Notes: generated from the sequence alone by a model not told the origin. A stretch of DNA of 20,000 nucleotides from an uncultured virus (IMG/VR IMGVR_UViG_3300007961_000315) (IMGVR_UViG_3300007961_000315), one strand, 5' to 3'. Counted from the first letter of the stretch, positions 2,343-20,000 are shown. Program-made: numbers and translations.

Positions 2343-2627
2343 TCAAACAGCTTTTTTCAGGTATTGCTTTGCGTGGGTCAAACACTCCCTTTCAGTGTCA
2401 CAGGCGGATGCTATGGTGATGCCACGGCATTTCGCCAGCCAGAAGGCTTTTGTTTCCTCCATTACAAAGGCGTAATAGCAGAGCAGCTCCACTGCTTGTC
2501 CTTCGACGCATGCTGTTTCTCTGATTTCCGGTTGGGAAAACAGCTGCTTTTCTTCCATTACGCGGCACTCTCCTTTGGACAAACCGGGTGTTCCTCTGCG
2601 CTTTTTTGCCGCATGAGTTCCATGCAT
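2343..2627 (-). CDS. Hypothetical protein (94 aa; alternative start MEEKQL at 2558)
   Basis: TAATG coupling with the upstream ORF at 2627; a second ATG at 2558 has an AAAGGAG RBS. Confidence 0.6.
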   Translation of the reverse strand: MHGTHAAKKRRGTPGLSKGECRVMEEKQLFSQPEIRETACVEGQAVELLCYYAFVMEETKAFWLAKCRGITIASACDTERECLTHAKQYLKKAV

Positions 2628-2800
2628 TAGGCCCCCTTATCCAGGTCAAGCGGTTCTTTCATCAGCTCCTGCATCCAAGCAGGCGGCTTTTTGGTGTTGT
2701 GCAGGTCGTCCCGAAAAATAATTGCTTCGCGTTCGATCCCATTGGCATCAATAAATTTGATTACCTGCCGGCGCTCCCGGTTTACCTTTTTCAGTCTCAT
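2627..2800 (-). CDS. Small hypothetical protein, first gene of the leftward operon (57 aa, MRLKKVNRERRQVIKFIDANG...DKGA); not in the ORF track
   Basis: Manual translation; GAAAGGAAG RBS upstream of the ATG at 2800; TAA at 2629-2627. Confidence 0.65.
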   Translation of the reverse strand: MRLKKVNRERRQVIKFIDANGIEREAIIFRDDLHNTKKPPAWMQELMKEPLDLDKGA

Positions 2801-2833
2801 GTCTCAACTTCCTTTCACTTTGGTTTTATATGC

Positions 2834-2866
2834 AAAAAGAAGCGGGAGCCGTTCGGTCCCTGCTTC
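2834..2866 (-). terminator. Second terminator-like hairpin in the leader of the leftward operon
   Basis: Minus strand GAAGCAGGGACCG-AA-CGGCTCCCGCTTC followed by TTTTT. Confidence 0.55.
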
Positions 2867-2897
2867 CAATTACCATCGCGATTCATCTTTTCACAAC

Positions 2898-3000
2898 AAA
2901 AAAGGCGCAGTACGCCCATAATGGGGGTACTGCGCCAAGAAAATCATTTCAAGCAGCGACGAAGCTGCCAACAAGCAAACTCTTCGAAGAGTTCAAAAAA
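2898..3000 (-). repeat. Conserved 103-bp operon-leader element, copy 1 (palindrome + hairpin + terminator)
   Basis: Reverse complement matches 8415-8517 at 100 of 103 positions by manual alignment. Confidence 0.95.
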
Positions 3001-3012
3001 TATCGTAAATAT

Positions 3013-3041
3013 AGTATAGCCTGACAGCAGGTGGTTGTCAA
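3013..3041 (-). promoter_or_regulatory. Sigma-A promoter of the leftward operon
   Basis: TTGACA (3041-3036), 17-bp spacer, TATACT (3018-3013). Confidence 0.85.
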
Positions 3042-3107
3042 GCTGGGGGGCTCCGCCTTTGGATGATAAGTACAAAGATCATCTTCTGGCTGGGGATGCT
3101 ATTCCCA

Positions 3108-3136
3108 TTGCAGTTGCAAAAACTATATGGTATACT
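3108..3136 (+). promoter_or_regulatory. Probable promoter of the fic gene
   Basis: TTGCAG-17 bp-TATACT with a TGn extended -10. Confidence 0.6.
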
Positions 3137-3176
3137 GATACTAATTGATACTATAAATTATCAAAGGCGGTGTGCC

Positions 3177-4346
3177 ATGAACGCAAAAGACCTCGCAAAG
3201 ATGATAAACGACAAGCATTTTTTTGATCTCAAGAAGATGCAATATAAGTATTCGAATGAAAGTGTTGCCGAGATGCTGGATGCACTGGTGGCAATGAGCT
3301 ATAACGAACTTCCTATTCGGGATTTTGCAGGGGTTTCCTGCGTTTACCTGCCTGCCCAGAGTATGATTTCTACTGGCGTGGTGAAGAAGTTGCTGGCGGC
3401 AAATACCTCCAAGGAGATGTTTGGTCGAAAGGCGATGGAGGAGGAGATCAACTCCACCCTGCAGATCGAAAATATCCAGTCCAACCGGGAGAGCGTCCGT
3501 AGGATCATGCAGGGCTATGCCCCCGCCAATGAGGAAGAAAACCGCATCCTGGGCATGAAAAAGGCGATCGAGTTTATCGGTGACCCGGCAAATAAGATCA
3601 CCGAAGAAAATCTGCATAAGCTCTATATGCTTTCGGTTGGCGCCTATCTGGAGGGCGAGGACGGACTTTCCGAGGGCAGTTTTTATCGTGATGACTCCGT
3701 TTTCGTCATCGGTGATAAGCCGTATCATCAGGGCCTGCCTGCAAAACTGTTGCCGGAATACATGGCGCAGCTGATTGATTTTGCCAATCAGAAGGACGAC
3801 ATCCCGGAGCTAGCTAAAGCGTGTATTCTACATTTTTATATCGCCTATCTGCACCTCTACTTTGACGGTAACGGCAGAACTGCCCGAAATGTGCAGATGT
3901 GGTATCTTGTGCAGCAGGGCTTTTCCTCGACCTTATTCTATGCCTTTTCCAAGTATATCAACGCCTCGAAAAATGAATATTATGACAGCTTCCTCGCTAT
4001 CGAAGAGAATTACAAAATCAGTGGACTGATCGATGTGACGCCATTTATTCGGTACTTCAAAGAGAATGTGTACGACAAGATCAGTGTAGCGGGGGATGAG
4101 GTGGCGGTTTCGCAGATCTTTACACAGGCGATGCGGGAGGGCAGAATCACCGAGAAAGAGCGTGACCTGTGGAATTTTGTCCTCTCTGCCTATGGAGATG
4201 CTGAGTTTTCGACCAAGCGACTAGAGAAGGACTTCGGCAACGCGGCATACGCGACGATCCGCAGCTTTGTGCTGAAGTTCGAGGAGCTGGACTTGCTGGA
4301 AGGGCAAAAGGTTGGAAATAAGGTGAAGTATCGGGTGAGAGGTTGA
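3177..4346 (+). CDS. fic: Fic-domain protein, class II (N-terminal inhibitory motif), probable C-terminal winged helix
   Basis: HLYFDGNGRTAR matches HxFxDGNGRxxR-type motif; TLQIEN matches (S/T)xxxE(G/N); start placed at MNAKDL after AAAGGCGGTG. Confidence 0.9.
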   Translation: MNAKDLAKMINDKHFFDLKKMQYKYSNESVAEMLDALVAMSYNELPIRDFAGVSCVYLPAQSMISTGVVKKLLAANTSKEMFGRKAMEEEINSTLQIENIQSNRESVRRIMQGYAPANEEENRILGMKKAIEFIGDPANKITEENLHKLYMLSVGAYLEGEDGLSEGSFYRDDSVFVIGDKPYHQGLPAKLLPEYMAQLIDFANQKDDIPELAKACILHFYIAYLHLYFDGNGRTARNVQMWYLVQQGFSSTLFYAFSKYINASKNEYYDSFLAIEENYKISGLIDVTPFIRYFKENVYDKISVAGDEVAVSQIFTQAMREGRITEKERDLWNFVLSAYGDAEFSTKRLEKDFGNAAYATIRSFVLKFEELDLLEGQKVGNKVKYRVRG

Positions 4347-4378
4347 CATACTCAAAGAGGAGGAGCAATATAAAAAAT

Positions 4379-4505
4379 ATGTGTTATATGGTTGCTTACG
4401 CTGATGCCGATGGCAGAGGTTTCGGGATACTACCATTTATCGAAGATTCGTTCGGCTGCAAAGAAGAAGCCTTGCAAAAGAGTCGCCTTATGGCTGGTTG
4501 GGGCT
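4379..4505 (+). pseudogene. Small gene (MCYMVAYADADGRGFG...LMAGWG) cut by the IS right end
   Basis: GAGGAGGAG upstream of the ATG; frame runs into the IS end at 4506. Confidence 0.5.
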
Positions 4506-4700
4506 TTGACACTCCCCACGCCTAAAGGCGGGGGATTCTCGGTTCAGCGACCGTAGCCCGCAATATGCAAGGACTTACATAGTCTTCCCGAGCGTTAGGT
4601 TCGGGCGTGTCCCGCCCTACCGTATGCACCAACTACGCCAGTAGGCGCAGCCCTTCATTCAGGATGTTTTTTGCGGCGTTGCGGTCTCTGTCGTGAACAG
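4506..4700 (-). ncRNA. Predicted TnpB omega/reRNA scaffold; the guide would be the flank AGCCCCAACCAGCCATAAGG (4505-4486)
   Basis: Structured region from the tnpB 3' end to the terminal TCAA; established TnpB biology. The 5' boundary is approximate. Confidence 0.65.
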
Positions 4701-5745
4701 CGCCGCACTCCGGGCAAGTCCACTCTCTGACGCTGAGGTCTTTTGTACCCGGCCACTGCGCACCGCAAGCGGAGCATAGCTGAGAGGACGGAAAGAAGCA
4801 GTCTATCGTCACTACCTGCTTCCCATACCATCCGGCTTTGTACTCCAACTGCCGCCGGAACTCGCCCCACGATGCGTTTGAAATGGACTTGGCCAATCTG
4901 TGGTTTTTTACCATGTTTTTCGGGGCTAAATCCTCCACGCAGATCACATCGTTCTGCCGGATGATTTCCGTAGACAGCTTGTGTATCATGTCCTGCCGCT
5001 GGTTAGCGATGTGCTCATGGAGCCGCGCTACCTGAAGCCTCACCTTTTCCCGGCGGTTGCTCCCCTTTGTCTTTCGGGAGAGCTGCCGCTGGAAACGGGC
5101 CAGCTTCTTCTCAGACTTGGCAAGGTATTTGTGGTTTGGATGCTCTACTCCATCGGAAGTGACTGCAAATGTCTTGATCCCCATGTCGAGCCCCACAGCC
5201 GTTCCGGTGGAGGGCAGGTGCGCAATGTCCACATCCGTACAGCACAGGGCGACGAAGTATTTCCCGCTGGGATTCTGCGACACTGTGGCGGACAGGATAC
5301 GGCCTTTGACCTCTTTGGAGATCCGGCATTTCACCTTTCCCAGCTTCGGGAGCTGTACGGATTTATCTAGCACCTTGATGTTCGTCCCCACGCATTTGCT
5401 CTTGTAGCTCTGCCGGTGGTCGCGCTTGCTATTGAACCGGGGGTAGCCGGGCTTCTCGCCCTGTTTAACACGCCGAAAAAAATTCTGGAAGGCTGTATCC
5501 AGGTCGCGCAGAGATGATTGAAGAGCAGTAGCATCCACCTCGCGCAGCCATTCCAGAGACTTCTTAAGCTGGGTCATATCCCCGGCGCAATCGTAGTAGT
5601 TGAATGTTCTGCCGTTCTGCTCATAGTCTTCTTTGCGCTTGGAGAGATAGTAGTTGAACACATACCGGCAGCAGCCGAAGGTCTTATGTATTTGATGCAC
5701 CTGCGCTGCATTGGGATAGATGCGGAATTTATAGCTGTATTCCAT
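4633..5745 (-). CDS. tnpB: RNA-guided endonuclease TnpB (370 aa)
   Basis: N-terminal [17 protein letters not shown]; RuvC residues GLDMG, VEDL, DRDRNAA; zinc finger CSAC...CPEC; catalytic triad appears intact. Confidence 0.97.
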
Positions 5746-5754
5746 CTTCCCACC

Positions 5755-6147
5755 TCACACATTCTTCTGGTTTTCAATGTATTGCTTGATGACCGATAAA
5801 GGAGCTCCACCGACGGTAGACACAAAATATGAGTTTGTCCACAACGACGGCAGACGGGAGTTCAGCCACGCAAATTCCTGACGCAGCACCCTTGATGTTC
5901 GGCCTTTTATTTGCTTGATAGCTTTATGGACGCCGAATTGTGGGTTTACTTCCATCAGCAAATGCACATGGTCTGGCATGACTTCCATCTCAATGATGTC
6001 GATGCGGTATTCACGGCTAATTTCCTCTATGAGTTCCTTTAACCGTATATCAACACCATCGACCAAGACCTTACGGCGGTATTTTGGACACCATACCACA
6101 TGATATTTGCAGGAGTACACCACATTGTTATTGCTTTTATATTCCAT
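5755..6147 (-). CDS. tnpA: IS200/IS605 Y1 (HUH) transposase
   Basis: YHVVWCPKYRR, DHVHLL (HUH), LWTNSYF, KQYIENQ (catalytic Tyr). Confidence 0.97.
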   Translation of the reverse strand: MEYKSNNNVVYSCKYHVVWCPKYRRKVLVDGVDIRLKELIEEISREYRIDIIEMEVMPDHVHLLMEVNPQFGVHKAIKQIKGRTSRVLRQEFAWLNSRLPSLWTNSYFVSTVGGAPLSVIKQYIENQKNV

Positions 6148-6153
6148 AGAAAT

Positions 6154-6182
6154 ATTATACTACTGTTCGCCATCTAATGCAA
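6154..6182 (-). promoter_or_regulatory. tnpA promoter, probably giving a leaderless mRNA
   Basis: TTGCAT-17 bp-TATAAT, 6 nt before the ATG; no RBS. Confidence 0.7.
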
Positions 6183-6261
6183 GACGATATCCTGTTAACG
6201 GGGGGAGCAAGGTGTGGCTTATATCCCCATAGCTAAAGCAAGGGGTTTTACGCCACGTGTG

Positions 6262-6402
6262 ATAAATGGCCCGTTCCACTTCATCGACGAAGTGCTCCGC
6301 CACTATGGGATTTTCTAAACGATGCGTGATATAATCCACAATCCCATTCAAATCCTTTTCAAATAATGGAAGAAAGGAAAGGCTATATCGCTTAGTGTTC
6401 AC
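6262..6402 (-). pseudogene. RelE/ParE-family toxin, N-terminal half only, cut by the IS left end
   Basis: YSLSFLPLFEKDLNGIVDYI...NPIVAEHFVDEVERAIY is a typical ParE-like N-terminus; it follows a Phd antitoxin; sequence after ...AIY is IS DNA. Confidence 0.85.
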
Positions 6403-6414
6403 GGATGCGCTTCC

Positions 6415-6651
6415 TCACTCTCGCAAAGACTTCCCCTCGGAGGATCGGATTTCAGAAAGTGAAGCAGCGCGATCTGCTTCGTCCAGTTTAAGTTCCAGCT
6501 CATCGGTCAAAGCGGAATACTGCTCCAGGCTCATCACCACCATAGAGCCATATCCATTCTTGGTCAAAAAGACTGGCTCACCGGTGTTCAAAACAACTTC
6601 TTCGATTTCCGGGAATTTGTTGCGCAAATCGGATACAGGACGAATCGTCAT
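6415..6651 (-). CDS. Phd/YefM-family antitoxin, probably frameshifted near the C-terminus
   Basis: IRPVSDLRN...EPVFLTKNGYGSMVVMSLEQY; the alternate frame continues EVFARVRKRIREH* to 6392, overlapping the toxin start. Confidence 0.88.
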   Translation of the reverse strand: MTIRPVSDLRNKFPEIEEVVLNTGEPVFLTKNGYGSMVVMSLEQYSALTDELELKLDEADRAASLSEIRSSEGKSLRE

Positions 6652-6674
6652 AGTAACACCCCACTTTTAATTTA

Positions 6675-6718
6675 TATCATTATTTTATCATTATTTTATC
6701 ATGATATTATCAAAATAT
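6675..6718. repeat. Four tandem 11-bp repeats (TATCATTATTT x2, TATCATGATAT, TATCAAAATAT)
   Basis: TATCA at 6675, 6686, 6697 and 6708, between the divergent antitoxin and resolvase starts. Confidence 0.85.
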
Positions 6719-6743
6719 CGATATTTGCAAAGGCGGTAAGGGG

Positions 6744-6915
6744 TTGAAAATCGGATAAGTACCCAAGAGCAGAACACCATCCGCCAAACGGCGCTGATGG
6801 AATCTCTTGGCGTGGATGAGGTCTATATTGACAAGACGAACGAGAAAAACACCGACCGGAGCTTCAAGGGATGATGGAATATGTCAGGTTGGGCGATACT
6901 GTAATTGTAGAATCA
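6744..6915 (+). pseudogene. Serine recombinase (resolvase/invertase) remnant, frameshifted and truncated
   Basis: Spliced manual translation MKIG/ISTQEQNTIRQTALMESLGVDEVYIDKTNEKNTDR/ELQGMMEYVRLGDTVIVES resembles the resolvase catalytic N-terminus (R-x-S-T, GDTVIV); not in the ORF track. Confidence 0.8.
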
Positions 6916-6918
6916 AAA

Positions 6919-6973
6919 AAGTTTATGCTATCAATAGCATAAACTTGAATAAATCGTCTTTTTGTGCTACACT
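6919..6973 (+). promoter_or_regulatory. Promoter of the ATPase gene with an overlapping 12-bp-arm palindrome
   Basis: AAGTTTATGCTA-TCAA-TAGCATAAACTT (6919-6946); TTGAAT-17 bp-TACACT with TG extension. Confidence 0.65.
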
Positions 6974-6991
6974 TCAAGCAGAGGTGATATG

Positions 6992-8311
6992 ATGCTTAAA
7001 AATGGAAGTGAGTTGTGCCGCCGTGATTTGTATCTGAACCGGCTGATTGCATTTCAAGATACCGAACCGGTTAAGATAGTCACCGGCATTCGGCGCTGTG
7101 GAAAATCCAGCGTTTTGAAGTTGATGGTCCGCCATCTACAGGAAACCGGTGTAACGGATGATCAGATTATCGAGATGAACTTTGAATCCATGGATTTCCG
7201 CAGAATGACTGTCGAGGAGCTATACCGGTATGTAAAGGAACGATTGCCGGAGAAAAAGCGCGCCTATCTGTTCTTTGATGAGATCCAGCGCATCGATCAA
7301 TGGCAGGACGCAGTGAACTCCTTCCGGGTGGATTTTGACTGTGATATCTATGTGACCGGCTCCAACGCTTATCTTTTGTCCTCGGAGTATGCAACCTACC
7401 TGGCCGGACGAAGTGTGGAGATTAAAATGCTTCCGCTCTCCTTTCGAGAGTTTCTGGACTTCCACGGCTATACGGTCCGGGAGAGCAAAAGCCCCGCTGG
7501 AGGAATGAGAAAGCGGATCTACGATTCCAATGGCGATAGCTATGAGGTTCAGGAGTTGCTAGACGCCTATCTGCGCTTCGGCGGGATGCCTGGAATCGCA
7601 GATGTGGGGCTGGATATCGACAAGGCGCTGACCCTGCTGGATGGGATCTACTCCACGGTCGTGGTGCGAGATATCTTGGAGCGGGAGCGCCGCCGTGGCC
7701 AACGGCAGATCACCGACCCAGATCTGCTGCGGAAGATCATCATGTTTCTGGCTGACAATATTGGTAACAGCACCTCCATCACATCCATCAGCAATACCTT
7801 AGTGAACGAAAAGCTGTTGGACCAGAACCGTAAGGGGAATCCTTCGGTCCACACCATTCAGGCGTATGTGGATGCGCTGCTGGAGTCCTATATCTTTTAT
7901 GAGATCAAGCGTTTTGACATCAAGGGCAAGGAGTACCTTCGCACCCTGGGTAAATATTATATCGTGGACACTGGTCTGCGAAACTATTTGTTAGGCTTCC
8001 GGGACATGGATACCGGACACCTCATCGAGAACATCGTTTACTTTGAACTGCTCCGCCAGGGATACGATGTGTCGATCGGCAAGGTGGACAACAAGGAAGT
8101 GGATTTTATCGCCGCCAATACGGAGGAGAAGCGTTATATCCAGGTGACCGAGTCCATAAACGATCCGGCCACCCGGGAGCGGGAGCTGGCACCGCTGCGG
8201 ATGATCCGGGACAATTACGAGAAGGTCGTTATTGCCGGAAGCTGCGATTATCCCATCACAGCGGACGGCATCAAGATAATCAAGCTGACAGACTTTCTTC
8301 TGGATACCTGA
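6992..8311 (+). CDS. AAA+ ATPase, AAA_14 + DUF4143 type
   Basis: Walker A GIRRCGKS, Walker B FFDEIQ, YVTGSNA, LAGR, FGGMP, KYYIVDTGLRN, EVDF...YIQV; GAGGTG RBS. Confidence 0.92.
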   Translation: MLKNGSELCRRDLYLNRLIAFQDTEPVKIVTGIRRCGKSSVLKLMVRHLQETGVTDDQIIEMNFESMDFRRMTVEELYRYVKERLPEKKRAYLFFDEIQRIDQWQDAVNSFRVDFDCDIYVTGSNAYLLSSEYATYLAGRSVEIKMLPLSFREFLDFHGYTVRESKSPAGGMRKRIYDSNGDSYEVQELLDAYLRFGGMPGIADVGLDIDKALTLLDGIYSTVVVRDILERERRRGQRQITDPDLLRKIIMFLADNIGNSTSITSISNTLVNEKLLDQNRKGNPSVHTIQAYVDALLESYIFYEIKRFDIKGKEYLRTLGKYYIVDTGLRNYLLGFRDMDTGHLIENIVYFELLRQGYDVSIGKVDNKEVDFIAANTEEKRYIQVTESINDPATRERELAPLRMIRDNYEKVVIAGSCDYPITADGIKIIKLTDFLLDT

Positions 8312-8373
8312 CCAATTGGAGGCGAATTGATGGCATATGAAATTACCGTTACTGGAATATGACATATGTGGTG

Positions 8374-8402
8374 TTGACATTTAAAATAAAATACTATATA
8401 CT
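8374..8402 (+). promoter_or_regulatory. Sigma-A promoter of the rightward operon
   Basis: TTGACA (8374-8379), 17-bp spacer, TATACT (8397-8402). Confidence 0.85.
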
Positions 8403-8414
8403 GTGGTTACAGTG

Positions 8415-8517
8415 TTTTTTGAACTCTTCGAAGAGTTTGCTTGTTGGCAGCTTCGTCGCTGCTTGAAATGATTTTTTTGGCGCAGTACTCCCACTATGGG
8501 CGTACTGCGCCTTTTTT
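8415..8517 (+). repeat. Conserved 103-bp operon-leader element, copy 2
   Basis: Inverted copy of 2898-3000; palindrome AACTCTTCGAAGAGTT at 8422-8437; hairpin GCAGC-TTCGTC-GCTGC; terminator 8479-8518. Confidence 0.95.
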
Positions 8518-8518
8518 T
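8479..8518 (+). terminator. Leader intrinsic terminator (attenuator candidate)
   Basis: GGCGCAGTAC-TCCCA-CTA-TGGGC-GTACTGCGCC then T7, between the promoter and the first gene. Confidence 0.85.
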
Positions 8519-8631
8519 ATTGCAAAAAACACTGTGAAGTCAAAAAGGAAGGAGATCACAACTATGAGCGGGTAAATCTCACAATCACCGCAGTATTCAA
8601 AATTTTAAAATGAAAAGGAAGGAACGTGTGT

Positions 8632-9417
8632 ATGAGCCAGTCCCTGTCATTGTCGGAGTTTTTTCTCATGGGAAAAATGGATGCCGGTTTTGAGATCAGC
8701 GAAAGGTATGTCACCGGGATCTGCGTCCTGTATGCGGAACGAACAGCGGAAGAGCGGGAGTACATGATTCGGGAAAAATCCATTGTTGCGCTGGCCGGAC
8801 GAGAACTGAGCGAGTGTGTGCAGGAGGCGAAAGACCTTGCGTGCCGATCTGCTATCCGGCGCTTATCGGATATGCCGGCAATCCCTGCCGCCGAACCAGC
8901 GCAGGAGAAAGACAGCGAAAAGCCAGCCTCCCGATTCAGCATCGCACCTCAGAAACGGGTTGTAAAGGAAGCGCCGGCGGTTGAACCGGAGCCGGAAGAA
9001 CAACTTAGGCCGGACGACTTTATGGAAGAACGTTCGATCTCTTTTGTGGACGAATCGAAGAATGCGGTAAAATCTCAAAATACGGAGGAGCCGATTTTGA
9101 GTAGCGTCAAACAGGTCGGGTTTGCTGATTTACGGCCTGCATCCTCACTCCTGAAAGAAGAACCGACGCCTGTGCTAAGCAGCGATCTTGAAGCGGACAA
9201 AGAAGATGAGGCGCTGGAAAAGGCTCGCGCCATGAAGATCAGCATCGTTGGCAAGGTCCATCAGTGCTATGGCTGGACGGCTGGTAAGATTTTGAATGAA
9301 GCGCCTGAAGTAATCGTGGAATTTGCCAACCGGTATAACGGACCAAGAACAGAGGAACGTGACGCATTGCGAGCGCTCTATACCGAGGCCCTGCGGCGCG
9401 TTAACCGCGCTGCATAA
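8632..9417 (+). CDS. Hypothetical protein (~261 aa) with acidic, disordered middle
   Basis: Long ORF, AAAAGGAAGGA RBS; first gene of the operon. Confidence 0.8.
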   Translation: MSQSLSLSEFFLMGKMDAGFEISERYVTGICVLYAERTAEEREYMIREKSIVALAGRELSECVQEAKDLACRSAIRRLSDMPAIPAAEPAQEKDSEKPASRFSIAPQKRVVKEAPAVEPEPEEQLRPDDFMEERSISFVDESKNAVKSQNTEEPILSSVKQVGFADLRPASSLLKEEPTPVLSSDLEADKEDEALEKARAMKISIVGKVHQCYGWTAGKILNEAPEVIVEFANRYNGPRTEERDALRALYTEALRRVNRAA

Positions 9418-12623: not shown

Positions 12624-12637
12624 CCCCAGTTTTGATG

Positions 12638-12679
12638 AGGCATTTATGCGTGTTAGACGTATAGGTGCCTTTTTATTTT
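12638..12679 (+). terminator. Intra-operon intrinsic terminator-like hairpin
   Basis: AGGCATTTATGCGT-GTTAG-ACGTATAGGTGCCT then TTTTATTTT. Confidence 0.7.
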
Positions 12680-12689
12680 GTGAAATGGA

Positions 12690-13223
12690 GTGATGAACAT
12701 GGAAAAACAGGATGCAAACCCGAAAAAAAGGAGCGTGCAACAGCTGCTTCAGGACCTGCTGCCGCCGCTTTGGAAAGGAATCCGAATGGCAGTGATCAGG
12801 ATCGGTCAAATGCCTTTTTGGAGTATGGCTTTACTCTGTTTCGCGCTTCGTGTCTTTGTGGTTTATCCTTTCGGCACCGGCGCTGCGATCTTGTCCGGCT
12901 GCATCTGGACTTATTGGAATTTGAGCTGTGTCAAAACGATGGTGCTCAATGGCCTGTGGAGCCTTATAGGCGCACTTGGCGGCCATGAGCAGCAATCCCT
13001 TTGGTTTGAATTTGAAGGCAGGGATGAAATATGCAAGATCATTGATCGGCTATCGGCACAAGGGGTCAATCACTGCAATCTGGTTGAGCAGATCGATGAT
13101 CTGCCGCCGGAGAACCAGTGGTATGCAATCTGTAATGGCCTGAACGCCATGGGGGTCATTGCGCAGACAACCCGACGCGCGCTGTATATCACCTGGTGTC
13201 TGCCGCATGCGGCGGCTGAATAA
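12690..13223 (+). CDS. Hypothetical membrane protein (start may be 12693 or 12699)
   Basis: Hydrophobic stretches at about residues 40-95; GGAG upstream of the ATGs. Confidence 0.7.
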   Translation: MMNMEKQDANPKKRSVQQLLQDLLPPLWKGIRMAVIRIGQMPFWSMALLCFALRVFVVYPFGTGAAILSGCIWTYWNLSCVKTMVLNGLWSLIGALGGHEQQSLWFEFEGRDEICKIIDRLSAQGVNHCNLVEQIDDLPPENQWYAICNGLNAMGVIAQTTRRALYITWCLPHAAAE

Positions 13224-17371: not shown

Positions 17372-17773
17372 TTGGAGGCAAGCACTTTGAAATTAGACCG
17401 GATAGAACATATCGACTACTTTGAGGGGGCGACAATATTTTGGGCGGATCTTTCTGAGGCGCCGCAGGAACTGCAGGATTTGGCGCGAGCACTAGACGGT
17501 TCTGAGTATGATCCCATGCGCTTTGGAATGTGCATCCATCACGACGTGGCGACAGGAGAATGGAGCGTTGTGACCGATACCGATCTGTCCACCGGAGAGA
17601 ACTGTAATGTTTTTTATATCGATAAGGAAGGAGATAAGTATTGGTTCAAAGCGGATCTTACGCAAGACTTTGTTCTCTTGGTATTCATGGAATGTAAACG
17701 GGCCGCAGTTAAATCAAATGGCGACCCCATGGAAGGTAGTTGCCCAATAATCGACCTCCCAAAGCAGCCTTGA
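17372..17773 (+). CDS. Hypothetical acidic protein (133 aa)
   Basis: TTG start after GAGAGGA; followed by a terminator. Confidence 0.7.
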   Translation: MEASTLKLDRIEHIDYFEGATIFWADLSEAPQELQDLARALDGSEYDPMRFGMCIHHDVATGEWSVVTDTDLSTGENCNVFYIDKEGDKYWFKADLTQDFVLLVFMECKRAAVKSNGDPMEGSCPIIDLPKQP

Positions 17774-17789
17774 AAAGACAGTTTAAATA

Positions 17790-17832
17790 AAGAAAAGGTG
17801 TTCCTTGCTAAGCAGGGTGCACCTTTTCTTTC
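17790..17832 (+). terminator. Bidirectional terminator ending the rightward operon
   Basis: AAGAAAAGGTG-TT-CCTTGCT-A-AGCAGGG-TG-CACCTTTTCTT. Confidence 0.85.
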
Positions 17833-17871
17833 TCAAATATAAAAGTCCCAAAAATGCGAGAAAGTTGCATC

Positions 17872-17900
17872 TTGCATTTTTCAACCACATTATTTATAAT
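17872..17900 (+). promoter_or_regulatory. Possible sigma-A promoter
   Basis: TTGCAT-17 bp-TATAAT, but in AT-rich DNA. Confidence 0.5.
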
Positions 17901-18026
17901 TAAATTACTATTATGACAAGTGTGATAAAAAACATAATATTATTGTGCTAAATTTTGAAGCATATATAGGCTGAAAATTGGTGTTCAAAGTATTCGGTGG
18001 ATCGGTGTTGGATATTTGTAGGACTG

Positions 18027-18148
18027 CAAAAGCGGCACAAATCCTCAGTCTTTAGGGATGGAATATCAAGCTTCAGAGGTATTCTTCATTTTGAAACAAT
18101 CATTGTTGATCGCAGAATCCCTGGCTTTAGCCATGGGGAGTATGTCAA
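18027..18148 (+). mobile_element. Miniature non-autonomous IS200/IS605 derivative (PATE-like)
   Basis: Right end GAATCCCTGGCTTTAGCCATGGGGAGTATGTCAA (18115-18148) parallels the IS right end; a degenerate left-end-like segment GGCACAAATCCTCAGTCTTTAGGGATGGAATATCAAGC lies upstream. Left boundary approximate. Confidence 0.7.
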
Positions 18149-18185
18149 GTATCTGTAATTCAGCATTATAAAAGGAGAAATTACT

Positions 18186-18470
18186 ATCGATACGAACCAA
18201 TTATTACAGATGATCGTGCAGGAATCTGGGTATCCGAGGGAGACAGTGACAGCTGTATATCTTTCAATGATCAACACGCTGGAAAATGTACTTGGCCGGG
18301 GAGAGGTCGTAGATCTATCCCCGGAATGGGGCAAGTTTATTCCAAAACTGAGGGAACAAAAATTGAATCCCGGTTCCCCGCGCACGCCAAAGGATACGCG
18401 GTATCAGGTGTTTTTTCGTTTCAGCAATGATTTTGAAAAGAAGATAAAACCCTTGCGCAAGGAGATTTGA
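18186..18470 (+). CDS. HU/IHF-like DNA-binding protein, apparent ATC start
   Basis: (M)DTNQLLQMIVQESGYPRETV...VLGRGEVVDL..WGKF...PRT...VFFRFSNDFEKKI follows the HU pattern; AAAGGAG lies 8 nt before the in-frame ATC. Confidence 0.65.
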   Translation: MDTNQLLQMIVQESGYPRETVTAVYLSMINTLENVLGRGEVVDLSPEWGKFIPKLREQKLNPGSPRTPKDTRYQVFFRFSNDFEKKIKPLRKEI

Positions 18471-18510
18471 GCTGGAGAGATTAATCCATCAAAGAGGTGA
18501 TGTCAGCTTT

Positions 18511-19050
18511 ATGTCGACGGACGACAGAATTGTTTTTGAGAAAATAGACGCACCGATAGAACGCATCAATTGACCGAGCAATGCGCCACATATAATCGTC
18601 TACATCGAAAATGTCAAAGACAGTGTTCCTAATGGCAGGCTGACAAATTTTTATCTGCAATCACCAGTCTTTTTTTGCGGTTTTGGAGATATGTTCCTTA
18701 CGATGGACTCTATTTACGATTATTTGAACTTTCCACAAGCCAGTCGGGAACCACGTAGCTTTATGCAGCCAAATAAGCGGTTTTATGACCATCTGGCTCC
18801 ATACCAAAAGCAGTTTTATCAGCGCTTTTCGATTAAGGCGCCAGTAAAGAAAGCCCTCGCTGTTTTTGTTGTCGAAACACGTTTTCGGCAGAACGGAAGT
18901 TGGCAGGGAACCGTTCGTTGGGTCCATGAAAACAAAACACAAAACTATTTAAGTGCCCTTCAGCTTCTGGGATTCATGACAGAGGCGATTCATACAATAC
19001 AAAACAGAAAACAACCAGGTGAGAAAGAAGCATTGGAACCTGATAGATGA
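18511..19050 (+). pseudogene. Clostridial-type hypothetical gene with an in-frame TGA at 18571-18573
   Basis: ATG at 18511 after AAAGAGGTGA is in frame with ORF 18691..19050; the read-through segment is protein-like; FRQNGSWQGTV motif downstream. Confidence 0.65.
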
Positions 19051-19121
19051 CCTAAAAAGACTTCGTATTGGCAAGGTGTGTAGAAGACCGTGGACTTGTA
19101 AGCTGTCAGGAAAAAACAAAT

Positions 19122-19331
19122 ATGTTAAGACCGGAAAAACATAAATTATTGATTAGCGATGATTCTGAAATAAACCGCTTGGCTTTGTCCAGAATTATGT
19201 GCAACGAATTTCAAATCGATGTGGCTCACAATGGATTGAAGGGATTGGAACTTCTACAAAAGAATGTAACAGATATCCTTCGGAGCGTTGAGTTTCTTGG
19301 GAGGGCCTTTATTATTATTGGGCCTCCTTGA
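19122..19331 (+). pseudogene. Truncated response-regulator receiver domain
   Basis: KLLISDDSEINRLALSRIM...AHNGLKGLELL is a REC N-terminus; similarity is lost before the phospho-acceptor Asp. Confidence 0.7.
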
Positions 19332-19529
19332 TCAATGATGAAACGATATACTCAGTTGGCATCCAGCCGGAATTCGGGCGGTGCGTCGAAGAATGTCGCC
19401 ATGGGGAGTTTTTAATGGTAATGTAGCTGTTTTTCTGGTAACAGAGATTTACTCATAAAATAACTTTGCTTTTTTATATATTGGTCGATAATCTAAATAT
19501 AGGTTTGTTTAAGGGGTAACACGAATTAC

Positions 19530-19558
19530 TTGCATATGTGTGCATGAAGCTGTATGAT
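19530..19558 (+). promoter_or_regulatory. Possible cheV promoter
   Basis: TTGCAT-17 bp-TATGAT. Confidence 0.5.
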
Positions 19559-19589
19559 ATGACTGAATGGGTAAAGTGGAGGTGGCCAA

Positions 19590-20000
19590 ATGGAAAAACA
19601 GGATATTCTATTGGAATCGGGTACCAATGAATTTGAAATTATGGAATTCACCATTGCGGGAGAGACCTTTGGCATTAATGTGGCGAAAGTCCGTGAAATT
19701 ATGATGGCGTGCCCGGTGAAACCCATGCAGAAGGCTCAAAAAGATATCGAAGGGATATTTAAATCCCGTGACATTGTTATCACGGTAATTGATTTGGCTA
19801 GCTACCTCAATCTGCCAGCATCGAAAAATCCCGATCGGGATATCTTCATTGTTACAAATTTTAATAACACCAATTTTGCTTTCCATGTGCATACAGTGGT
19901 TGGTATTGATCGAGTCTCCTGGCAGCAAATCAAGAAGCCCGACAAGATCATTTACGGTGGTCAGGAAGGTGTAGCAACGGGGATTGCAGATTTTGAAAAT
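19590..20000 (+). CDS. cheV: Chemotaxis protein CheV, N-terminal CheW domain (partial); not in the ORF track
   Basis: Manual translation MEKQDILLESGTNEFEIMEFTIAGETFGINVAKVREI...EGIFKSRD.VITVIDL; GGAGG RBS; open to the window end. Confidence 0.92.
   Translation, partial: MEKQDILLESGTNEFEIMEFTIAGETFGINVAKVREIMMACPVKPMQKAQKDIEGIFKSRDIVITVIDLASYLNLPASKNPDRDIFIVTNFNNTNFAFHVHTVVGIDRVSWQQIKKPDKIIYGGQEGVATGIADFEN

Follow-up and report, generated by a model that had tools for sequence, protein, structure and literature searches.

We analysed a stretch of 20,000 nucleotides (nt) from an uncultured virus (IMGVR_UViG_3300007961_000315), hereafter the window, and found that two of its operons, which run in opposite directions, are headed by the same cassette of about 145 bp, consisting of a near-consensus promoter, a structured leader RNA and a terminator. 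What is established is the repeat, together with its structure, conservation, position and copy number; the cassette is a real and conserved unit which matches no named family. It stands at the head of two operons at least, and probably of three or four. We see an even chance that the shared cassette gates several operons of one element, with read-through of the terminator granted by a trans-acting factor, probably by processive antitermination. The public sequencing runs which contain the stretch are animal-gut metagenomes, with no RNA run among the 20 listed, and we infer that the host element is a rare mobile replicon (a plasmid or an integrative and conjugative element) of animal-gut Firmicutes.

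In a repeat search of the window the two copies formed an inverted repeat of 121 nt with 93% complementarity, the arms of which lie at 2898-3018 on the minus strand and 8397-8517 on the plus strand; the runner-up inverted repeat was 31 nt long at 77%. Pairwise alignment of the copies gave 100 identical columns out of 103 in the leader (8415-8517 against 3000-2898) and 3 mismatches, and the similarity stops abruptly past the U-tract. Both copies carry identical TTGACA and TATACT hexamers (left promoter 3013-3041, minus strand; right promoter 8374-8402, plus strand), with 17-nt spacers which cannot be aligned to each other and 12 nt, half-similar between the copies, from the -10 hexamer to the conserved block. 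These are the only exact occurrences of TTGACA-N17-TATACT in the window and rank first among its 30 promoter-like sites, with 11 of 12 consensus positions each. A further promoter-like site inside the right leader (8444-8472, 9 of 12 positions) was rejected as the operon promoter, since its transcripts would begin at the terminator stem.

The right leader RNA (8409-8518, plus strand) is predicted from the alignment and folds to be about 105-110 nt long and to start at A8409, 7 nt past the -10 hexamer; the left leader RNA corresponds to 2898-3006 on the minus strand. RNA folding recovered three hairpins in both copies. For the right copy these are hairpin 1 (8421-8438, -5.1 kcal/mol), with a perfect 16-bp palindrome inside it at 8422-8437, hairpin 2 (8446-8463, -8.6 kcal/mol), which has a 6-bp stem and a 6-nt loop, and the terminator T1 (8479-8518), in which a hairpin at 8479-8511 with a stem of 10+4 bp (-25.2 kcal/mol) is followed by U7. 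For the left copy they are hairpin 1 at 2977-2994, hairpin 2 at 2952-2969 and T1 at 2904-2936, followed by U6 at 2898-2903. The two leaders folded with z-scores of -5.4 and -7.0 against 200 shuffles. Across copies the T1 stem energy is -24.7 to -25.2 kcal/mol with a U-tract of U6-U7, and the T1 pairs form with a probability of 0.996-1.0 at equilibrium. In T1 a U-tract comes immediately after a G+C-rich hairpin on the transcribed strand, so that intrinsic termination is predicted from sequence. The palindrome, which lies about 13-28 nt past the presumed start site, is perfect through its centre (TCGA) and was found twice in the window against 0.07 occurrences expected; hairpin 2 and T1 are not true palindromes. 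Hairpin 1 with its palindrome may act as DNA (an operator), as RNA (a hairpin) or in both ways.

These results bear out an earlier note on this DNA in several respects. The note had counted the same 100 of 103 matches, and the alignment and the promoter scan agree with its placing of each leader 12 bp past a TTGACA-17-TATACT promoter with an unrelated spacer. Its description of a palindrome, a hairpin and a terminator in the leader matches the three folded hairpins, and the 3 differences between the copies, which it had put at unpaired positions, fall in the folds in the linker, at an internal mismatch of the terminator stem and in the terminator loop. It had also taken the transcribed leader and the promoter hexamers as the conserved unit: the spacers diverge, and the hexamers and their spacing are also kept in the relative described next. 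Lastly, the copies are placed by operon and not randomly, as the note had proposed, since they stand at operon heads in the same orientation as the operon and at the same places in the relative.

This relative is a JGI metagenome contig of 2,879 nt (L091), the sole match of the 24-mer of hairpin 2. Its minus strand carries, in order, TTGACA-17-TATAAT, 12 nt, a homologue of the leader, a second terminator-like hairpin and orthologues of p57 (81% amino-acid identity), p71, the DUF4313 protein and the zinc-ribbon protein of the left operon. About 330 bp upstream, on the opposite strand, there is a second cassette, of which TTGACT-17-TATACT, 12 nt and the first 30 nt of the leader can be read before the contig ends. 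It is 85.5% identical to the right copy of the window over 76 nt and, because the promoter spacer and the 11 nt upstream align as well, it is orthologous to that copy.

We compared the conservation of the leader between the window and L091 with that of its surroundings. Identity was 87% for the left leader (90 of 103 columns), 80% for the p57 gene, 71% for the DUF4313 gene, 64% for the zinc-ribbon gene, 63% for the p71 gene and 67% for the spacer from T1 to the ATG; the sequence upstream of the -35 hexamer could not be aligned. Conservation of the leader exceeds that of the pooled coding sequence (Fisher P = 2.6e-5) and that of the spacer (P = 4.6e-4). A block of 27 nt, comprising hairpin 2 with its loop and both flanks, is invariant in all three full copies, and hairpin 1 keeps 6 of 7 pairs in L091. 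Of the 27 predicted leader pairs, 23 are constant among the three full copies, 2 have a one-sided change which turns them into G.U or U.G, and the 2 which are lost are loop-closing; no internal pair is broken. The 13 variable columns of these copies fall on 4 of 54 paired and 9 of 37 unpaired positions (P = 0.033), and the G.U and U.G changes, which lie in the T1 stem of L091, fit the transcribed strand only. This variation among three sequences weakly supports an RNA structure and is not proof of one. Over the 30 nt which can be read in four copies, all four substitution columns are element-specific and common to both paralogues. This pattern indicates that the leaders evolve in concert, which the promoter spacers do not, and it would reflect either concerted evolution proper or co-evolution with a shared factor.

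The cassette is not limited to these copies. In one run (X2), a 16,236-nt contig at the depth of the element (31) begins with a variant of the leader, differing from 8448-8517 by 2 letters and 1 gap, and continues into DNA unlike the window. The same run has a loose end at 8390, with a further TTGACA box and different upstream DNA, and its summed depth at 8472 is 127.4 compared with 31-33 for single-copy sequence, the contigs breaking inside the repeat. There is at least one further copy in the X2 sample, and possibly a second further copy. In a run from an independent study (X4), a 981-nt contig spans 8353-9333 with 0 differences; as it matches the junction of promoter, leader and first gene, this junction is not an assembly artefact.

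Behind each cassette a further terminator was found. On the left, a second terminator-like hairpin with a U run (T2; 2834-2867, minus strand, hairpin at 2838-2867, -20.2 kcal/mol) lies between T1 and p57. L091 keeps it (-19.4 kcal/mol, z = -5.9), and a comparison of the two folds shows one A-U pair replaced by G-C through a compensatory double change. On the right, a strong internal intrinsic terminator (12637-12671, plus strand, -22 kcal/mol, z = -5.8) stands 19 nt ahead of the next open reading frame (ORF), with seven ORFs behind it. Several terminators thus follow one promoter in both operons: T1 and T2 on the left, and T1 and 12637-12671 on the right. A scan for sigma-70-type promoters found none with at least 9 of 12 positions downstream of T1 and ahead of the first gene in either operon, and the promoter scan found none between the terminator at 12637-12671 and the next ORF. 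As no promoter is recognised between T1 and the first genes, expression of both operons seems to need read-through.

The earlier note had named the leader a candidate attenuator or establishment switch, and we examined whether it could grant this read-through by itself. Pairing of the upstream 70 nt with either arm of T1 was no better than chance in all three leaders, with 29-73% of 500 shuffles pairing equally well or better, and with the 3' arm of T1 held unpaired the best fold was about -20 kcal/mol, compared with -41 to -42 kcal/mol. A self-contained riboswitch, T-box or zipper-type attenuator was therefore rejected: there is no alternative fold above chance and T1 forms with a probability of about 1.0, so the attenuator of the earlier note is not supported in this form. 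The leader has the three-part layout of a zipper on the surface only (hairpin 1 with -5.1, hairpin 2 with -8.6 and T1 with -25 kcal/mol), the central stem being just 6 bp long. Without a competing fold in the leader, a trans-acting factor would be required for read-through. The note did not recognise the leader as a named riboswitch or T-box, and covariance models of Rfam 15 gave 0 matches at gathering score in the whole window. A relaxed Rfam scan of 2700-8800 (E up to 5) gave only Srn266, at 24.6 bits (gathering score 63, opposite strand), and mir-2970, at 20.5 bits (gathering score 72). A leader peptide or small toxin ORF was also rejected: the only frame, from the ATG at 8467, has 36 codons in the right copy and 21 in the left and has no Shine-Dalgarno sequence, and a 2-nt deletion in L091 shifts it and alters the peptide, so there is no conserved leader peptide. 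A perfect 12-nt complement (8409-8420 with 8524-8535) would, in transcripts which read through, close the whole right leader by a long-range helix; neither the left copy of the window nor that of L091 has it, and it was set aside from the structural model.

In the mechanism which we propose, the near-consensus sigma-A-type promoter would drive a leader RNA of about 105 nt ending at T1. By default most transcripts would stop there, to judge from the stem energy and the U-tract, and expression of the operon would depend on read-through of T1. A trans-acting and probably element-encoded factor would act on the leader to grant this read-through. Its likeliest mode would be processive antitermination of the nut/N kind, in which the factor would recognise the invariant hairpin 2 and carry the polymerase over T1 and later terminators. 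The palindrome just past the start site may also serve as a repressor operator. Operons under processive antitermination, in conjugative elements and in phages, likewise have several terminators behind a single promoter (PMC8191782; PMC11658703).

It should be noted that several points weigh against this mechanism. No candidate antiterminator or regulator was found among the window proteins with Pfam, PHROGs and NCBIfam. Hairpins 1 and 2 together span about 43 nt, compared with at least 341 nt for the canT RNA (PMC11658703) and about 70 nt for put (PMC9378689). The promoter scan covers sigma-70-type sites, so a promoter of another type could lie unrecognised past T1. When the leader is compared with the p57 gene alone, the difference in conservation is not significant (P = 0.14), and the 97% identity between copies within one element may owe much to gene conversion. 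As to covariation, by which the earlier note had proposed to judge the structure, there are 0 double compensatory changes in the leader, and the three full copies are too few for a powered test.

A more specific form of this mechanism, which we consider quite improbable, is a minimal, repeated, nut-like double lock, in which the two-hairpin RNA of about 43 nt recruits a small element-encoded protein for read-through of T1, T2 and the internal terminators across operons. The candidate for the recruited protein would be p57, the first gene product of the left operon, which has 57 residues, is well conserved, belongs to no known family and has a basic N-terminus. As this factor would be made only after read-through, the double lock would constitute a positive-feedback (bistable) establishment switch. 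If true, it would found a new family of antiterminators, whose RNA site would serve several operons and evolve in concert.

Of the alternatives to factor-dependent read-through, the one which survives best, and which we regard as possible if unlikely, is a regulon based on an operator only, of the EGeRS2/Reg576 or CUP/ArdK kind. Here the palindrome would bind a dimeric repressor which shuts all copies, and T1 would be a leaky attenuator or the terminator of the ATPase gene upstream. The symmetry of the palindrome through its centre is unneeded by an RNA hairpin and is not shared by the other two hairpins, and the palindrome sits where operators which block promoter escape sit. The strong establishment promoters of p576 carry operator motifs, in two of the four also just past the start site (PMC8708921), and the CUP sequences are ArdK binding sites (PMC6289460). 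The paralogues also co-vary within an element, as would be expected of sites matched to one repressor. However, both L091 copies have one half-site altered without a symmetric change, and the best-conserved block is hairpin 2 with its flanks and not the palindrome. Conservation spans the whole leader to the U-tract, with changes in the terminator which keep RNA pairing through G.U, and T2 is separately conserved. No helix-turn-helix or ribbon-helix-helix regulator was found in the window.

We also considered whether the cassette could be a multicopy gene for a small RNA of about 105 nt which acts elsewhere, for example on copy number, conjugation or host mRNAs, with its position ahead of operons being secondary. 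Conservation which runs from about the start site exactly to the U-tract, a strong promoter with a strong terminator, the invariant, seed-like loop and flanks of hairpin 2 and the presence of several copies per element would all suit such a gene. We nevertheless judge it unlikely, as every readable copy points into an operon without another recognisable promoter and a conserved T2 behind T1 makes sense only if transcripts pass T1. An antisense partner is impossible, since both copies give the same RNA, and a duplex scan of 29 start regions of the window gave one outlier (p71, for which 0 of 100 shuffles were as good) and nothing convincing after 29 tests.

It is very improbable that the repeat is a functionless relic, either a duplicated intergenic segment homogenised by gene conversion or a mere substrate for recombination or inversion of the cargo. 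The identity of 97% within an element against 87% between elements, together with the changes shared by paralogues, does show homogenisation. Against this, both copies have kept their positions in a relative with genes of only 63-80% identity, the leader is the best-conserved stretch, the promoter hexamers and their spacing are kept while the spacers diverge, and no strand-switch joint at the arms was seen in the contigs of four runs. Least credible of all is an origin of the arms as mobile-element ends, either those of a miniature inverted-repeat transposable element (MITE) or the terminal repeats of a composite transposon carrying the 5.4-kb block, for although inverted 121-nt arms do flank accessory genes including an insertion sequence (IS), the L091 cassettes stand about 330 bp apart without the block, so the arms are not its ends, the two ends of one cassette are not inverted repeats of each other, no flanking direct repeat was seen, and the arms have no match in PLSDB, INPHARED or IMG/VR. 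To our knowledge, IS200/IS605 elements, to which this IS belongs, have no terminal inverted repeats, which also counts against this explanation. The lack of terminal inverted and flanking direct repeats, together with the orthologous positions in L091, means that the cassette is not an IS or MITE end; a match to such an end would, by the earlier note, have refuted its proposal.

The block between the cassettes (3042-8373) consists of 5.4 kb of accessory genes. It contains a Fic gene (about 3174-4346, plus strand), the tnpB (4633-5745) and tnpA (5755-6147) genes of an IS200/IS605 element, a ParE-like remnant (6160-6402) which matches profile positions 2-36 of 89 only, a Phd/YefM antitoxin gene which looks whole (6415-6651), these last four on the minus strand, and an AAA_14/DUF4143 ATPase gene (6962-8311, plus strand). 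The ParE-like toxin gene is apparently truncated beside the IS, which would leave an orphan antitoxin. In L091 the gap between the cassettes consists of about 330 unrelated bp (2481-2806). As L091 has both divergent cassettes without the block, the divergent pair is ancestral and the 5.4 kb are inserted cargo; the gap between the promoters looks like a tolerated insertion site for cargo.

The left operon (minus strand) encodes p57, p71, a DUF4313 protein, a 347-amino-acid protein and a zinc-ribbon protein. The right operon (plus strand) encodes a 3-codon mini-ORF, p263, a CHC2 primase zinc-finger protein, p184, PcfK and a ParM-like actin and, past the strong terminator, a Gp2.5/Enc34-type single-stranded DNA-binding protein, a phosphatase-like protein, a DUF3268 (Lar-like) protein and others. 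Among these, the primase zinc-finger protein, PcfK, the ParM-like actin, the single-stranded DNA-binding protein, the Lar-like protein and the DUF4313 protein are products of replication, partition and establishment-type genes. The p57 gene (2627-2800, minus strand) encodes a small protein whose N-terminus is rich in Arg and Lys. It has no Pfam, PHROG or NCBIfam match, and its family comprises 4 clusters with 77-100% identity among 5.8 billion proteins; p57 is 77-81% identical to its three relative clusters and the L091 ORF. A contig of 131,673 nt in the protein index bears the DUF4313 and p57 genes of the window itself. It had 0 matches in 400 scored genomes sampled across one class, and an AlphaFold2 model built from 5 sequences had a mean pLDDT of 59.5. 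The first long gene of the right operon (p261/p263; 8632-9417, plus strand) belongs to no known family. Protein-atlas look-ups yielded no more than weak leads for p263 and nothing usable for p57. The mini-ORF ATG AGC GGG TAA (8564-8575) precedes the p263 gene, past the right terminator, with a strong Shine-Dalgarno-like run (8544-8554) 9 nt ahead of it. Further downstream, the starts of p177 (12680-12713) and of an ORF with a CheW domain (19571-19604) share a 34-nt stretch with 74% identity, which covers the ribosome-binding site and first codons. A palindrome with 21-nt arms (17789-17831, -26.6 kcal/mol), flanked by A-runs and T-runs, resembles a two-way terminator; past it the G+C content falls from about 0.50 to 0.38-0.43 in the region 17500-20000, where the CheW-domain ORF stands at 19590. 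This region may be the boundary of the element.

Searches of public collections for further relatives gave few leads. A blastn search with 8370-8530 (161 nt) found no match in PLSDB or INPHARED, and the L091 cassette had none in PLSDB. Three DNA patterns of the cassette gave 0 matches in IMG/VR, a 23-mer of hairpin 1 gave 0 in JGI metagenomes and the leader DNA gave 0 in 5 genomes. Protein scans of IMG/VR found 0 relatives of the DUF4313 protein, 0 of p57 and only 10 distant zinc-finger matches for the CHC2 protein, and a scan for p263 in GTDB genome contigs found 0 relatives. Of 109 DUF4313 relatives in GTDB contigs, 80 loci were covered, and the leader was absent from all 80, where blastn gave only chance words of 13-15 nt; only 7 of these 80 loci also had a second window gene in common with 26-33% identity. 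Four weak matches of the leader model (R1; E = 0.013-0.96) at DUF4313 loci of GTDB contigs were rejected as unrelated intergenic hairpins on inspection. The element family is rare, as the 4 clusters of p57 show. One unrelated DUF4313 locus, in a metagenome-assembled genome of an Anaerovoracaceae bacterium (L086), carries similar elements of a hairpin plus a T-run between successive genes (577-650, 3880-3940 and 7584-7683), which run straight into the next ribosome-binding site; it is a further operon in which terminator-like elements recur internally.

The timing of replication, partition and anti-defence genes in gut-Firmicute mobile elements is little known. Both leader terminators and repeated regulatory cassettes are established themes already, and if the cassette is only an operator with a leaky terminator it is an ordinary regulon marker. 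If read-through is controlled by a factor, the cassette would mark the co-regulated genes of the element and would be a compact promoter-leader-terminator part of about 145 bp. A literature search, which was not exhaustive and did not extend to subscription-only papers, found no description of a consensus promoter with a short terminated leader as a repeated unit of about 145 bp.

We compared the cassette with known systems, as described in the accessible parts of the sources cited. EGeRS2, of p576 and the clade II pLS20-family (Reg576), is alike in being a cassette which recurs upstream of several establishment-type operons, has a strong sigma-A promoter and defines a regulon (PMC8708921; PMC6294495), and in that it can carry a repeat motif just past the start site (PMC8708921). 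It differs in working through dual TTATCCC heptamers and a ribbon-helix-helix repressor, and a conserved terminated leader is not described for it in the parts available (PMC8708921; PMC6294495). The TTATCCC heptamer was not found in the four aligned cassettes, and no ribbon-helix-helix family was found among the 28 window ORFs scanned. EGeRS1 of pLS20 is likewise a structured repeat upstream of 5 operons, the copies of one plasmid clustering together, and it blocks transcription in one orientation only (PMC8708921). It is 420-750 bp long, GC-rich relative to the plasmid and without a constitutive promoter (PMC8708921), whereas the cassette has a leader of about 105 nt and a promoter with 11 of 12 consensus positions. 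The CUP repeats of the IncN plasmid pKM101 are conserved upstream repeats of several leading-region genes which form one ArdK regulon (PMC6289460, citing Delver and Belogurov 1997), but they are Gram-negative DNA-binding sites, for which a conserved terminated leader RNA is not described in the part available (PMC6289460).

Among leader RNAs, putL and putR of HK022 and nutL and nutR of lambda are also two similar short two-hairpin elements past divergent early promoters and ahead of terminators (PMC9378689; PMC11658703). The put RNA is about 70 nt long and acts independently of protein (PMC9378689), whereas here the two hairpins span about 43 nt and the terminator lies within the conserved unit; no sequence or Rfam similarity to put or nut was found, and only the layout matches. 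In the cATT and conAn systems of pLS20 and in canT/T1 of Tn916, the first gene is preceded by a leader which holds an intrinsic terminator (PMC13401043; PMC8191782; PMC11658703), and in Gram-positive conjugative elements processive antitermination carries the polymerase over several terminators (PMC8191782; PMC11658703). The cATT leader is 456 nt long (PMC13401043) compared with about 105 nt here, and its zipper needs complementarity between an upstream stem-loop and the terminator, of which the cassette has none above chance. The conAn2 and canT RNAs are large, and all of these systems are single-copy at one operon, whereas the cassette is repeated. Judged by its sequence and by their defining motifs, the cassette would be a member of none of these systems, though it resembles establishment regulons and paired phage leaders in its logic. 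The worked examples come from Bacillus plasmids (EGeRS1, EGeRS2, conAn and the zipper attenuator), Tn916 and enterobacterial plasmids, and the cassette joins features which those examples show separately: a near-consensus promoter, a palindrome past the start site and a short, strongly terminated leader, in a unit which is repeated and appears to evolve in concert.

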